From Candidatus Sulfobium sp. (GTDB taxonomy: Bacteria; Nitrospirota; Thermodesulfovibrionia; Thermodesulfovibrionales; UBA6898), in contig JARRRI010000071.1 in NCBI GenBank assembly GCA_037380845.1, positions 1 to 15,504 on the forward strand: 15,504 nucleotides of DNA, written 5' to 3'. Under the pieces are notes generated by a model. The model saw nothing but the letters and a program-made list of their open reading frames with translations. It was not told where the DNA came from and searched no databases. Within the stretch, counting starts at the first letter, position 1. Each line of letters opens with the position of its first letter. Shown in pieces: positions 4,193 through 8,537 of the stretch. The position numbers and the translations under genes were made by a program.

Positions 4193-4801
4193 CTACAGTC
4201 CCGGCTGCCCCTTTTCGATCGCTTCCAGCTTTTCCTTCTTCTCCTGGCAGTTCCTGCAGAGCGTCGCAGTGGGCAGGACATTCAGCCTCTTTTCCCCGAT
4301 TTCTTCACCGCAGTCCTCGCAAGTGCCGTAACTGCCGTCGTCTATCTTGCGCAGGGTTTCATCGATATCGAGCAGGTTTTGTCTGTGGGACGCAAGTCTC
4401 ATGAGGTTGACATCCTCCGAGATGTCGACGACGGCAAGGTCCCCTTCGTCCAGGGCGGTTTCGACGAGCTGACGGTTTTCGCCGCTTATATATTTTGCGA
4501 TTTCTTCCTTGGCTTCCCTGATTATGGACTCTCTCTTCTTCAGTAAAGACCGTCTCAGTTCCTGCAACCGGTCGGTTTTTGCGGTTTCTTTTCCTTTCGC
4601 AGTCTTGCGAGCGGCGGCCTTCTTTCCGGCGGGACCGGCTTTAGCGCGAACTTTCTTATTTCCTGTTGTGGTCACGTTTCTGCCTCTGGAGGTAACTTTA
4701 TCACGTGAGACTGCCTTTGGACTCTTCCCGGCGGTTTTCTTCGCCGAACCCGGAGTCCCGGTCTTCCTGCCCGCAGTTTTTTCCTTTTTTACGGCCGCCA
4801 T
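4193..4801 (-). CDS. dksA: DksA/TraR family C4 zinc-finger transcription factor with a Lys/Ala-rich N-terminal extension
   Basis: Coiled-coil tip DEGDLA (DxxDxA), GSYGTCEDCGEEIGEKRL..P...LCRNCQ. Confidence 0.85.
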   Translation of the reverse strand: MAAVKKEKTAGRKTGTPGSAKKTAGKSPKAVSRDKVTSRGRNVTTTGNKKVRAKAGPAGKKAAARKTAKGKETAKTDRLQELRRSLLKKRESIIREAKEEIAKYISGENRQLVETALDEGDLAVVDISEDVNLMRLASHRQNLLDIDETLRKIDDGSYGTCEDCGEEIGEKRLNVLPTATLCRNCQEKKEKLEAIEKGQPGL

Positions 4802-4941
4802 TATTTTTCCGGTTCTTCTTTTTTGATCTCTTCCTTGAAGACCTCAATGATACTTCTCACCTTTATGCCGGCCTGCTGCAGCGCCTTCTGGACATCAGGG
4901 AGTTTTGCGTCCTCTACCTTGACCATGAAATTGCTGTTCAC
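4801..4941 (-). CDS. Unannotated small protein, 46 aa (MNSNFMVKVEDAKLPDVQKALQQAGIKVRSIIEVFKEEIKKEEPEK)
   Basis: GTG directly after the frr TAA, SD GGAGG 5 nt upstream (inside the frr 3' end), stop overlaps the dksA ATG (TAATG). It fills the gap exactly and has protein-like composition. Absent from the ORF track. Confidence 0.8.
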   Translation of the reverse strand: MNSNFMVKVEDAKLPDVQKALQQAGIKVRSIIEVFKEEIKKEEPEK

Positions 4942-5499
4942 TTACACCTCCATGATTTCTTTTTCCTTGTGTTCCAGGATCTCATCAGCCTTCTTCACAA
5001 AGGAATCCGTGATTTTTTGTATCTCTTCCTGCTCCCTCTTTACGTCGTCTTCGCTCAAGTGCTCGTCCTTCTCCATTTTCTTGAGCTCATCGTTTGCATC
5101 CCTTCTTATATTACGAACCGCCACCTTGGCCTCTTCGGTTCTCTTCCTTACCACCTTGACGAGCTGTTTTCTTCTTTCCTCGGTCAGGTCGGGTATATTG
5201 ATCCTTATGATTTTGCCATCATTCATGGGGGTGAGCCCGAGATCAGACTTCATGATGGCCTTTTCGATGTCGGGGATTATACGCTGTTCCCAGGGCTGTA
5301 TGGCAATCTGCCTGCTTTCCGGGATGCTGAGACTGGCAAGCTGCTGAAGGGGCGTGATCGTTCCGTAATAATTTACCGAGATCCCTTCGAGAAGTGACAG
5401 GCTGGCCCTTCCCGTCCTGATAGAACCGAACTCCTTCTTCAGCGCCTCTATGGCCCCGTTCATCCTTTCACTTGTTCTTTTTCTTAGCTCCGGCTCCAT
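4942..5499 (-). CDS. frr: Ribosome recycling factor
   Basis: IRTGRA, P.NDG.IIR...[21 protein letters not shown]; 185 aa; follows pyrH. Confidence 0.98.
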
Positions 5500-6214
5500 T
5501 TTCCCCCCTGACGATCGTACCTATGTTTTTTCCCTCTATTACTTTCCGTATATTTCCTTTCCCTTTTAAATTAAATACCACAATAGGCAGGTCATTGTCC
5601 ATACATAAAGACACGGCGGTGGAATCCATGACCCGGAGGCCCTTCTTCAATACTTCCAGATAAGTGAGTTGTTTGTATTTCTTCGCCTCTGGGTCTTTAA
5701 CCGGGTCCGATGAATATACACCATCTACCTTCGTCCCCTTCAGAATAACATCCGCGCCTATCTCCATCGCCCTCAGTGCCGCTGCAGTGTCCGTTGTAAA
5801 ATAGGGGTTGCCCGTCCCTGCCGCGAAAATGACGATCCTCCCCTTCTCCAGATGTCTCACAGCCCTGCGCCGTATGTAAGGCTCGGCGAGCTCCCTCATC
5901 TCTATTGCGGACTGTACCCTGGTCGGAAGCCCATATTTTTCCAGGGCATTCTGCAATGCGAGTGAGTTGATGACCGTGGCGAGCATCCCCATATAGTCAG
6001 CGGAAGCCCTTTCCATTCCTTCGAGGCTTGCCTGCACTCCCCGGAAAATATTTCCTCCTCCTATGACCATCGAGAGATGAACCCCCATGGAGGCGACATC
6101 TTTTATCTCTCTCGCCAGAAAATCCACGGTGCCGGCGTCGATGCCGTACCCCTTGTCGCCCATAAGGGCCTCCCCGCTGAGCTTCAAAAGGACTCTTTTA
6201 TAGCGCAAGGGCAT
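5468..6214 (-). CDS. pyrH: UMP kinase
   Basis: [43 protein letters not shown]. Confidence 0.98.
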
Positions 6215-6222
6215 TATTTATC

Positions 6223-6843
6223 CTAGCAACTCACGGGTTGAGAAGGCTGGGTCTCGCCCAGCTGGTAGCGGACAAATCTTCTGACCACGATATTCTCCCC
6301 GAGCTTGGCCACCTTTTCAGTGATAAGGTCTCCTATTTTCTTTTTCTGATCAGGGTCCTTGACGAAGAGCTGATCCAGTAGACAGGTCTCGCCGAAAAAC
6401 TTTTCAAGTTTTCCCTCTATGATCTTCTCGACTACCTGGGGAGGCTTGTTTGTTACCTGTCCCCGGTAAATCTCTTTTTCTCTTTCAATTATGTCCCCGG
6501 GCACTTCTTCCCTCACAACATAGGCAGGCGAGGCAGCCGCAATATGCATGGCGATATCCTTGACAAGTTCCCTGAAATCGTCCGTCCTCGCCACAAAATC
6601 GGTCTCGCAGTTGACTTCCACCATCACCCCGATCTTGTCCATGTGGATATAGCATCCCACCGCCCCCTCGGATGCCGAACGCCCGGCCTTCTTGGCGGCA
6701 CTGGCAAGCCCTTTCTGCCTCAGGACGTCAACAGCCTTTTCGAAGTCGCCGTTGCTCTCCACAAGGGCCTTCTTGCACTCCATCATGCCGGCGCCGGTCT
6801 TTTCCCGGAGGTCTTTAACCATCTCAGCAGAAATCGCCGCCAT
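6223..6843 (-). CDS. tsf: Elongation factor Ts (short, about 200-aa type)
   Basis: [43 protein letters not shown] overlap with rpsB. Confidence 0.98.
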
Positions 6844-7619
6844 TATTCGTTCACCTCCTGCGTCTCGGTCGCCGCCTCTTCCGCCTCGACTTTCTCTTCT
6901 ATCTGCGCCTTTTCAGCCTCTTTTTCGGCCTCCTTGGCAAGAAAGTCGCTGCCTTCAATGACAGCACTGGCCATTTTCCCGGTCAGAAGCTTTATGGCAC
7001 GTATGGCGTCGTCGTTGCCAGGTACTACATAATCCACTTCATCGGGGTCACAGTTGGTGTCGACGACAGCAACTATCGGTATCGATAATTTCCTTGCCTC
7101 CGCAATCGCTATCCTCTCTTTTTTCGGGTCGATTACGAATATCACACCGGGCAACTCCTTCATATCCTTGATGCCGGAGAGGTTCTTTTCAAGTTTTACC
7201 CTTTCCTTTTCGAGGCCGGACGCCTCCTTCTTCGGAAGAAGGGCCATCGTCCCATCTTCTTTCATGGCCTCTATTTTCTTCAGCCTCTCTATGCTCTTCT
7301 TTACCGTAAGAAAGTTGGTAAGCATTCCGCCGAGCCAACGCTGGTTAACGTAAAAGGCGGAAGCCCTCTGGGATTCCTCCACAATCGCGTCCTGGGCCTG
7401 CTTCTTGGTACCGACAAAGAGCACCCCCGCGCCGGAAGCCGCCATAGTCCTTACGAAATTATAGGCTTCCTCAAGCCCCTTCAGTGTCTTCTGAAGGTCG
7501 ATGATATAGATGCCGTTCCTCTCCCCGAAGATGTATCTTTTCATCTTGGGGTTCCAGCGTTTTACCTGATGGCCGAAATGTACACCTGCCTCAAGCAGTT
7601 CTTTCATTGTAGCTACCAT
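6843..7619 (-). CDS. rpsB: 30S ribosomal protein S2
   Basis: [42 protein letters not shown]. True start is ATG 7619 with SD GGAGG; the longer ORF-track extension is non-coding. Confidence 0.98.
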
Positions 7620-7625
7620 GATGCT

Positions 7626-7728
7626 TTCCTCCGTTGGTTTTTTCCTCCGCCTGTTCTGCCACCCCCGGTTAAGGGACCAAAGGCAGAACTGTAGCCGGCG
7701 TGTGAATTTGGACCCGTAAAGACAGGTC
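7626..7728 (-). ncRNA. rpsB 5' leader, S2 autoregulatory / t44-like RNA
   Basis: On the minus strand: hairpin GACCUGU-CUUU-ACGGGUC, then CACACGCC...GGCGGAGG enclosing the stem GUUCUGCC/GGCAGAAC. CACAC and GGAGG elements upstream of rpsB are t44 (RF00127) hallmarks as I recall them. Confidence 0.7.
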
Positions 7729-7733
7729 GCATA

Positions 7734-7739
7734 AGTATA
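7734..7739 (-). promoter_or_regulatory. -10 box of the rpsB operon promoter
   Basis: TATACT on the minus strand just upstream of the structured leader; -35 is poor. Confidence 0.5.
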
Positions 7740-7781
7740 AAAGACTATCACATAAGGTATTTTTTTTGCCCCGGCAAGAAC

Positions 7782-8537
7782 GTGTGTGTCGGCCTGATAA
7801 CGGCTGTGCCTTCGGAGGGCTTTTACTTTGCAAAAAGACTGAGGGAGGTCAGGACATCCCCGGGCTTCCGCCCTTCGTTTTACAGAGGAAAGTTGGAGGG
7901 GAAGGAAGTAATCTATTCCGTCTCGGGGATGGGAAAGACCAACGCTGCCCATGCTGCCACCGTCCTTATACGGGACTATTCGCCGGAACTTCTGATAAAT
8001 TTTGGTGCCGGAGGAGCTTACCCTTCGGCGGGACTGGCTGTCGGGGATGTTGCGGTGGCCGAGGCAGAAATCTATGGGGACGAAGGTGTTTTGGACAGTA
8101 AGGGTTTCCACGGAGCAGATTATATCGGCATCCCTCTTCTGGAGAGAGGCAGAAAAAAGTTCTACAACGAGTTTGCGCTCGAAGGAAGTCTGGCGGAAGC
8201 AGCGGTCCGGTCCGCCGGGAGGGCCATCGAGGAGATGGCGGGCTCGCCAAAGGTCAGGTCAGGCAGATTTGTGACCGTCTCAACCTGTACGGGTACGCGT
8301 AAAAGGGCTGCAGAAGTCCGGGAGTTGTGGGACGCCATTTGCGAGAATATGGAAGGAGCTGCAATAGCTCACATATGTGCACTTTACAAGATACCTTTTT
8401 TAGAGTTGAGAGGCGTCAGCAATATTGTCGAGGACAGAGATACCGGCAAATGGAATCTCAAACTAGCCTCCGAAAACTGCTGCAAGGCTGTCGTTCAGCT
8501 GCTGAAAGAGCTGGCAGACCGTTCTACAGGTCAGTAA
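7782..8537 (+). CDS. mqnB: Futalosine hydrolase (PNP/UDP phosphorylase fold)
   Basis: [52 protein letters not shown]...W; near mqnD; GTG start. Confidence 0.88.

Follow-up and report, generated by a model that had tools for sequence, protein, structure and literature searches.

A 46-codon open reading frame lies between frr and dksA on the minus strand of a 15,504-nt stretch of DNA from Candidatus Sulfobium sp. (contig JARRRI010000071.1). The whole stretch is called the window, all coordinates are positions in it, and the 46-codon frame is called the small open reading frame (sORF). The sORF (4801..4941, minus strand; 46 aa, GTG start, TAA stop) was recognised from the sequence and the list of open reading frames. 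Upstream of it on the same strand is frr (4942..5499), which encodes the 185-aa ribosome recycling factor (RRF; Pfam RRF, E 7.5e-70; TIGR00496, E 6e-71). Downstream lies a dksA-like gene (4193..4801, minus strand) whose 202-aa product matches PF01258 at E 1.4e-16; the NCBIfam DksA models match this product too, but below their cut-offs. The DksA-like protein has an N-terminal extension of about 75 aa, rich in Lys and Ala, followed by a coiled-coil and C4 zinc-finger core.

Both junctions of the sORF are closed. Across the first, the minus strand reads ...ATC ATG GAG GTG TAA GTG AAC AGC AAT TTC ATG GTC AAG..., with the frr TAA at 4944-4942 and the sORF GTG as the very next codon (4941-4939), a gap of 0. 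The Met-Glu-Val codons at the end of frr contain a GGAGG Shine-Dalgarno (SD) sequence for the sORF (4947..4951, minus strand), which 5 nt separate from the GTG. The sORF ends ...GAA AAA TAA with its stop at 4803-4801, and the dksA ATG at 4801-4799 overlaps it by 1 nt, so that stop and start share one base in the pentamer TAATG (4799..4803, minus strand). A first-pass annotation made from the letters of the window had described a 46-aa frame in frame with frr and starting right after its stop, a well-spaced GGAGG, and no intergenic bases on either side; the sequence bore out all three.

The sORF is conserved as coding sequence. In a six-frame search of 61 related genomes, 59 contained a match to its peptide (E <= 4e-10, 58-93% identity) that was uninterrupted by stops; one of the remaining two genomes gave a chance-level match (E 0.49) and the other gave none. 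A separate, even sample of 201 genomes across the phylum yielded relatives in 96 at E <= 0.001. Over core codons 4-38 of 20 loci from the same genome family (190 pairs), nonsynonymous divergence (dN) was 0.053, against a proportion of synonymous differences (pS) of 0.82, which is saturated. This contrast shows strong purifying selection on the amino-acid sequence in the sORF frame. Conservation without internal stops in 59/61 genomes, taken with purifying selection, indicates that the sORF (4801-4941, minus strand) is a genuine gene, the predicted product being a 46-residue cytoplasmic mini-protein. The checks on coding proposed in the first-pass annotation, conservation of the frame in relatives and the ratio of nonsynonymous to synonymous change, thus came out in favour of a gene.

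The mini-protein consists of a conserved core at about residues 3-38 and a short mixed-charge Glu/Lys tail. An alignment of 54 members of the family (alignment A1) contained seven invariant columns (N4, K8, D11, K13, A20, L21 and S30) and eight more that were at least 90% conserved. The family core of about 36 residues can be written N-[FY]-x-[LV]-K-V-x-D-A-K-...-K-A-L-x-x-A-[GN]-I-x-V-x-S-I-x-E-V-x-K-E-E. Beyond about residue 38 the tails diverge, being acidic or proline-rich and 3 to about 70 residues long. Homologues in other classes shared 43-64% identity in this alignment.

To describe the neighbourhood of the gene, 47 loci from the related-genome and phylum searches were pooled with the best 80 of 315 loci found in a scan of species-representative genomes, and removal of duplicates left 108 distinct loci. 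These are the best matches to the window protein and are biased toward the window's own order, which is of the Thermodesulfovibrionales type; counts across relatives are phylogenetically non-independent, and order, class and genus assignments are the kinship labels of the genome collection. The mini-protein gene starts with ATG at 90 of the 108 loci, GTG at 12 and TTG at 5. It has frr upstream on the same strand at 103/108 loci, three of the five exceptions being cut by contig ends, and dksA downstream on the same strand at 102/108. The gap from frr stop to sORF start was 0 nt at 4/103 loci, 1 nt at 31/103 and 2 nt at 30/103; it was at most 12 nt at 88/103 and reached a maximum of 154 nt. Only 15/103 loci had the sORF in frame with frr. 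RRF ended in EIMEV at 99/103 loci, GGAGG lay inside the last 9 nt of frr at 93/103, and GGAGG was found within 20 nt of the sORF start at 106/108. At the other end, the sORF stop formed the pentamer TAATG or TGATG at 67 of the 102 loci with dksA downstream, and the dksA start was placed at a 1-nt overlap at 62 loci.

The order frr-sORF-dksA, the SD embedded in the RRF C-terminus and the 1-nt overlap with dksA are therefore the conserved features. The zero gap and the shared frame with frr, as seen in the window, are peculiar to its genus and a few close relatives, accidental and meaningless by themselves. The synteny that the first-pass annotation expected was found, but the junction of frr stop and sORF start was not fixed, its gap being 0 at only 4/103 loci.

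Several side observations concern the flanking genes. The EIMEV end of RRF (ATG GAG GTN; window 4942-4953, minus strand; locus L070, 2040-2055) supplies a GGAGG for whichever gene follows, the sORF here and dksA itself in a genus lacking the sORF, and the last residues of RRF appear constrained by the SD of the next gene. Where frr and the sORF are far apart, as at L029 (gap of 44 nt) and L031, the sequence gaaataatggaggta some 30 nt ahead of the sORF start resembles a second frr 3' end, as if a small duplication or insertion had occurred with the SD preserved. The N-terminal extension of DksA (window 4577-4801, minus strand) is a low-complexity stretch of about 75 residues, rich in Lys, Ala and Gly and reminiscent of histone H1 tails. 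DksA length in relatives ranged from 107 to 286 aa, and the TAATG overlap was present at 61/73 loci with a long DksA compared with 1/26 with short forms (<= 160 aa). We considered whether the sORF is tied to the Lys-rich extension and rejected this, as DksA is short (<= 160 aa) at 26 loci that have the sORF. The lengths of the sORF and DksA were negatively correlated (Spearman -0.57, n = 99, uncorrected for relatedness), which we read as a clade effect.

The gene belongs to a tightly packed operon with the minus-strand order rpsB-tsf-pyrH-frr-sORF-dksA. Upstream of frr are pyrH (5468-6214, minus strand; Pfam AA_kinase), tsf (6223-6843, minus strand; Pfam EF_TS) and rpsB (6843 to about 7619, minus strand; Pfam Ribosomal_S2 and translation, with the start inferred at MVATMKELL). 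Here tsf overlaps its upstream neighbour rpsB by 1 nt, a gap of 8 nt separates it from pyrH, and the overlap between pyrH and frr is 32 nt. Tight junctions are thus the rule in the whole operon and nothing special to the sORF. No promoter- or terminator-like sites above shuffle expectation were found on the minus strand within the operon, and an Rfam scan of the whole window matched no family.

This arrangement suggests how the mini-protein may be made. It would be initiated on its own, from a start codon about 5-7 nt past the GGAGG that the final three codons of frr encode. Together with RRF and DksA it would form a translationally coupled chain, probably in fixed proportions, since the 1-nt stop/start overlap and the 0-2 nt gap suit termination-reinitiation. 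The cited part of PMC10666635 reports that coupling by termination-reinitiation requires very short distances, and that coupled overlapping pairs are enriched for subunits of heteromeric complexes. The geometry of such pairs, an overlap or very short distance on the same strand, is present in the window and conserved in most of the 108 loci: dksA overlaps the sORF by 1 nt, the sORF begins 0 to a few nt after frr, and the SD lies in the upstream gene. This likeness would account for the expression of the sORF and not for the role of its product. Coupling is probably real, but a side property common to the whole operon.

Database comparisons placed the mini-protein in no named family, in agreement with the first-pass annotation. 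Neither Pfam nor NCBIfam gave a significant match for the window product, none of the 54 members of A1 had an above-threshold match in Pfam, NCBIfam or PHROG, and the A1 profile found nothing significant among PDB sequences. An exhaustive HMMER profile search of 1.84 billion representative proteins, with no length filter and E <= 1e-3, returned only 100 matches, all but one shorter than 180 aa. The matches inspected were free-standing small proteins with miscalled N-termini or low-complexity tails. A match of 1638 aa with 10 matched stretches (P0193) was a FliK-repeat protein and was discarded as a false positive. A word-indexed search of 5.8 billion protein clusters yielded 291 small proteins, and in the ESM Atlas the matches (scores 0.83-0.86) were all to clusters of hypothetical proteins, 46-52 aa long and without names.

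The gene had been described as hidden in the first-pass annotation; homologues are in fact already called in public assemblies, as 'hypothetical protein' in several and as 'ribosomal protein L11' in two JGI records. The names on public homologues point to the phylum Nitrospirota/Nitrospirae. All 315 loci of the species-representative scan encode an sORF relative, and the best 80 of them are labelled almost entirely Nitrospirae/Nitrospirota or Thermodesulfovibrionales, including UBA6898, Candidatus Sulfobium and Dissulfurispiraceae. Full-text searches of the literature turned up no description of the family. From the profile, genome-scan and literature results, the family as judged by sequence is small, undescribed and, as far as sampled, restricted to Nitrospirota. 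The suggestion of a lineage-specific small factor therefore held for a lineage-restricted small protein, while a role as a translation or transcription factor is putative.

The mini-protein was compared with several known families. The L11 N-terminal domain (PF03946) was rejected, as it matched 4/54 members with a best E of 0.021, below the cut-off. Membership of DksA/TraR (PF01258) was rejected as well: the sORF product has no cysteine and no PF01258 match, and the hhalign probability was 0.3%. An origin as a fragment or extension of RRF (PF01765) was countered by an hhalign probability of 1.1%, by the 88/103 loci at which the two genes are out of frame and by the lack of any fusion among the 100 HMMER matches. 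Long frames of 229, 268 and 191 aa around some homologues of other classes that suggested RRF fusions represent GC-rich untranslated upstream sequence instead. A likeness to RRF domain II noticed by eye (I-P-D-I-E-K-A-I in RRF, L-P-D-V-Q-K-A-L in the sORF) was ruled out by the same 1.1% probability. A possible resemblance to ribbon-helix-helix repressors (Arc/CopG), in which two helices follow a beta strand, was also looked at: the 25 Pfam families listed for the A1 members include none of this kind, and the AlphaFold2 model has a single helix (14-23) with residues 26-38 non-helical.

The AlphaFold2 model built with A1 had a mean predicted local distance difference test score of 76, with helix 14-23 flanked by extended segments and a low-confidence tail. 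DSSP assigned no sheet to this model, the extended segments being unpaired, and Foldseek returned a sole match to the PDB for the monomer, at E 9.6. A structural search against representatives gave Z <= 3.2 throughout, values that the tool rates as common arrangements. Within that range, 36 residues of the model fitted residues 434-469 of the Hera RRM at 1.4-1.5 A (Z 3.0-3.1), and 43-44 residues fitted dodecins at 2.6-3.7 A (Z 2.9-3.1); other best-fitting structures were uL23, PurS and ACT-type subunits. In RRM/ferredoxin-like domains the fit falls on their first beta-alpha-beta. These proteins and the dodecins differ from the mini-protein in sequence (2-17% identity) and in having extra strands that complete their sheet.

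In RRM and ferredoxin-like folds the first two strands are non-adjacent, and further strands complete the sheet. From the model we infer a split beta-alpha-beta unit for the sORF core, equivalent to one half of a ferredoxin-like, RRM or PII-type fold; the beta-alpha-beta look noted at first pass agrees with the model and the superpositions. Because a lone split beta-alpha-beta cannot form its sheet, the mini-protein would need a second copy or partner strands to fold. A homodimer prediction (two copies, A1) reached a score of 0.39, where the mark was 0.42 and controls gave 0.00-0.04, and was counted neither way.

A further likeness was seen to the N-terminal beta1-alpha1-beta2 of PII (GlnB/GlnK, PF00543), which has the same order of predicted secondary structure. 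PII was the one known family to stand out in comparisons of sequence. In an hhalign comparison of A1 with 31 PII proteins from this and related genomes, sORF residues 11-36 aligned to PII residues 10-35 with a probability of 73.6% (P 2.9e-5). The score of 28.4 exceeded the mean (10.4) and the best (17.2) of 200 column shuffles, which destroy secondary-structure periodicity, and that of the reversed alignment (13.5). A larger family alignment of 143 sequences gave 73.4% against PII, with controls at 0.6% for RRF, 0.4% for DksA and 3.3% for PyrH; the corresponding controls for A1 were 1.1%, 0.3% and 4.5%. The alignment is ungapped over 24-26 columns, with 35-38% identity (K-L-x-[DE]-V-x-x-A-L-x-x-x-G-I ... 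[ST]-[IV]-x-E-V), and the second-best six-frame matches in several genomes were PII genes. The Pfam P-II model (PF00543) matched only 3/54 members at E >= 0.024, below its 25-bit cut-off. PII is also far larger, at about 112 aa compared with about 40 residues, and the mini-protein is without the T-loop, the second beta-alpha-beta and the C-terminal nucleotide-binding residues. We regard the PII likeness as suggestive at the sequence level, and below the level for claiming homology. The window's genome (G000) contains three PII genes (contigs C5, C13 and C10; L073-L075); relatives have 2-7, some in tandem with partners of 130 aa or more that resemble NifI-type pairs.

The best overall explanation, to which we give a probability of about 0.5, is that the sORF is a genuine Nitrospirota mini-protein gene, probably coupled with frr and dksA, and encodes what would be a small subunit with a binding or accessory role. 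Such a product may be oligomeric and would serve the housekeeping transcription or translation machinery in its own right, not as a mere relay. We suggest only tentatively that it is an accessory subunit of that machinery which, in this order, would work most likely with DksA and RNA polymerase. This partner is favoured because the dksA overlap is conserved, because at one locus (L143) the sORF-dksA pair stands together after a gene for pyruvate phosphate dikinase, frr being absent from 3 kb around it, and because at another (L047) the sORF is directly upstream of a NusG-family gene. Small RNA polymerase subunits have precedents in delta and epsilon of Firmicutes. SutA of Pseudomonas, described in the cited part of bioRxiv 10.1101/423384 as a small lineage-specific RNA polymerase accessory protein, offers an analogy for a possible mode of action: SutA-type proteins are likewise small and lineage-restricted, combine a short structured element with a charged disordered tail and are encoded among housekeeping genes, but they have no sequence relation to the mini-protein.

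A number of observations weigh against this reading. The structural matches to the model all lie below Z 3.3 and prove no fold. Twenty further loci were fetched, one from the window's order (with frr) and 19 from other classes, and by tblastn frr or dksA lay within about 2.5 kb at 0/19 of the latter; only in one order, then, is the sORF linked to dksA. The frr-sORF pair occurs without dksA at four loci (L046, from another order of the class, and L108, L113 and L140), and because it persists in this way the RRF link is about as well supported as the DksA link; retention of the sORF with frr alone is equally frequent. In addition, the sORF is missing from two genera of the same order in which frr and dksA are still neighbours. 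In one (g25, sORF in 0/10 genomes) the dksA ATG comes directly after the frr stop and DksA is short, at 130 aa; in the other (g37, sORF in 0/2 genomes) a 65-nt spacer separates frr from dksA. The A1 profile gave only chance-level partial matches inside large open reading frames in five genomes of these types that are 99-100% complete. The mini-protein is thus dispensable for DksA. Phyletic co-occurrence with DksA/TraR is non-discriminating, because 193/201 phylum genomes carry that family, including every family lacking the sORF (f17, f23, f24 and f26).

The accessory-subunit reading also has rivals in which there is no separate gene or in which the product is not what matters. That no independent gene exists here, the sORF being a chance spacer frame or a stretch added to the RRF C-terminus when ribosomes read through the frr stop, is suggested by its opening in frame at the codon after the frr stop in the window. 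Conservation and dN/dS exclude chance, and the sORF has its own start codon and SD at 106-107/108 loci, is out of frame with frr at 88/103, stands as a free gene in other classes and is never fused to RRF in the length-unrestricted search of 1.84 billion proteins. Unlinked copies, selection, the fusion search and the frame counts refute the idea, and its probability is close to nil. A second possibility, raised at first pass, is that the act of translating the sORF matters: ribosomes would pass from frr to dksA, and DksA synthesis would report the status of ribosome recycling. Both junctions are tight in the window and widely so elsewhere (gap <= 12 nt at 88/103 loci, 1-nt overlap at 62), and very short distances are what termination-reinitiation requires according to the cited part of PMC10666635. 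Such a relay is nevertheless improbable as the main function, because the product is under purifying selection and is conserved where its gene is unlinked to frr and dksA (0/19 linked), because frame and gap relative to frr vary, and because genus g25 couples dksA directly to frr without the sORF. The first-pass annotation had itself named variable spacing or frame as grounds for refuting its relay, and only 15/103 loci are in frame. In E. coli, moreover, RRF depletion left coupling efficiency unchanged, as reported in the cited part of PMC7538156.

Two further alternatives keep a role for the protein and change its partner or its mode of action. The mini-protein may work with RRF or the ribosome instead of DksA, as its place directly after frr in the rpsB-tsf-pyrH-frr operon (103/108 loci) and the frr-sORF pairs without dksA would suggest; we consider this unlikely, since the gene is unlinked to frr at 19/19 other-class loci and also at L143 and L047, the protein is about net neutral by a count from its sequence, unlike typical basic ribosomal proteins, and the profile comparison with RRF is at background (1.1%). 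Also unlikely is a minimal PII- or ACT-like ligand sensor, a half-ferredoxin oligomer that would bind a nucleotide or metabolite and regulate some target, an idea compatible with either partner. None of the 200 column shuffles reached the score of the PII comparison, the 143-sequence alignment repeated it while the RRF, DksA and PyrH controls stayed low, PII genes appeared as second-best six-frame matches, and the conserved polar residues N4, K8, D11, K13, S30, E33, K36 and E37 suggest a binding surface. However, PII was chosen post hoc from a weak PDB match (E 0.76), the Pfam model matched few members below its cut-off, only 24-26 columns align, with no counterpart in the mini-protein for the T-loop or for the latter half of PII, and convergence on a common beta-alpha-beta could explain a score judged against shuffles without its periodicity. 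The more specific proposal of a phylum-specific half-PII-type subunit, a ligand-binding oligomer docking on DksA and RNA polymerase or on the recycling ribosome, is speculative and has a low probability.

Other features of the loci were recorded in passing. In the window, the 422-codon frame listed for rpsB (6843-8111, minus strand) is an open frame extending upstream of the real gene; its S2 domain begins at residue 172, the likely start is MVATMKELL near 7619, and the product ends in an acidic Glu-rich tail. In other classes, the genes next to the mini-protein gene encode HU, Slp lipoproteins and cytochrome c assembly proteins, an HhH protein with groES, Hsp20 and ThiS/ThiF, GGDEF/GAF proteins, or ahcY. 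In one GC-rich family, an HhH protein (HHH_8/HHH_5, about 170-200 aa; L048, 1961-2479; L053, 1783-2376) is encoded before the mini-protein gene on the same strand, and the mini-protein gene lies 0.5-1 kb upstream of groES. In Nitrospira-type genomes, an 87-116-aa open reading frame follows the mini-protein gene (L056, 2830-3093; L064, 2175-2525; L051, 612-902). It has a weak IrrE/Peptidase_M78-like match (E 3e-6 to 6e-3), is followed in turn by Slp lipoprotein genes, and HU is encoded divergently at these loci.

Nitrite oxidisers, sulfate reducers and magnetotactic bacteria all occur among the Nitrospirota, a phylum with few genetically tractable members. In kind, a conserved microprotein inside a translationally coupled operon is a familiar situation; the family itself is undescribed. 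It is unusual in being so well conserved for so small a protein, in its restriction to one phylum and in its place between two global regulators of ribosome use and synthesis. With about 40 residues, 43-64% identity across classes and a position in a core translation-factor operon beside the stringent-response factor DksA, the mini-protein may well be a housekeeping component that has escaped recognition. The locus also shows cleanly how the last codons of one gene (Met-Glu-Val of RRF) can serve at the same time as ribosome-binding site for the gene that follows. If the PII likeness is real, the protein would be an unusually small natural half of a ferredoxin-type fold; if it is not, the family would be another conserved protein of unknown function, as is common among microproteins. 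Should the half-PII subunit prove true, stringent-type control in Nitrospirota would have one more input, a protein whose amount translational coupling would keep in fixed proportion to RRF and DksA.

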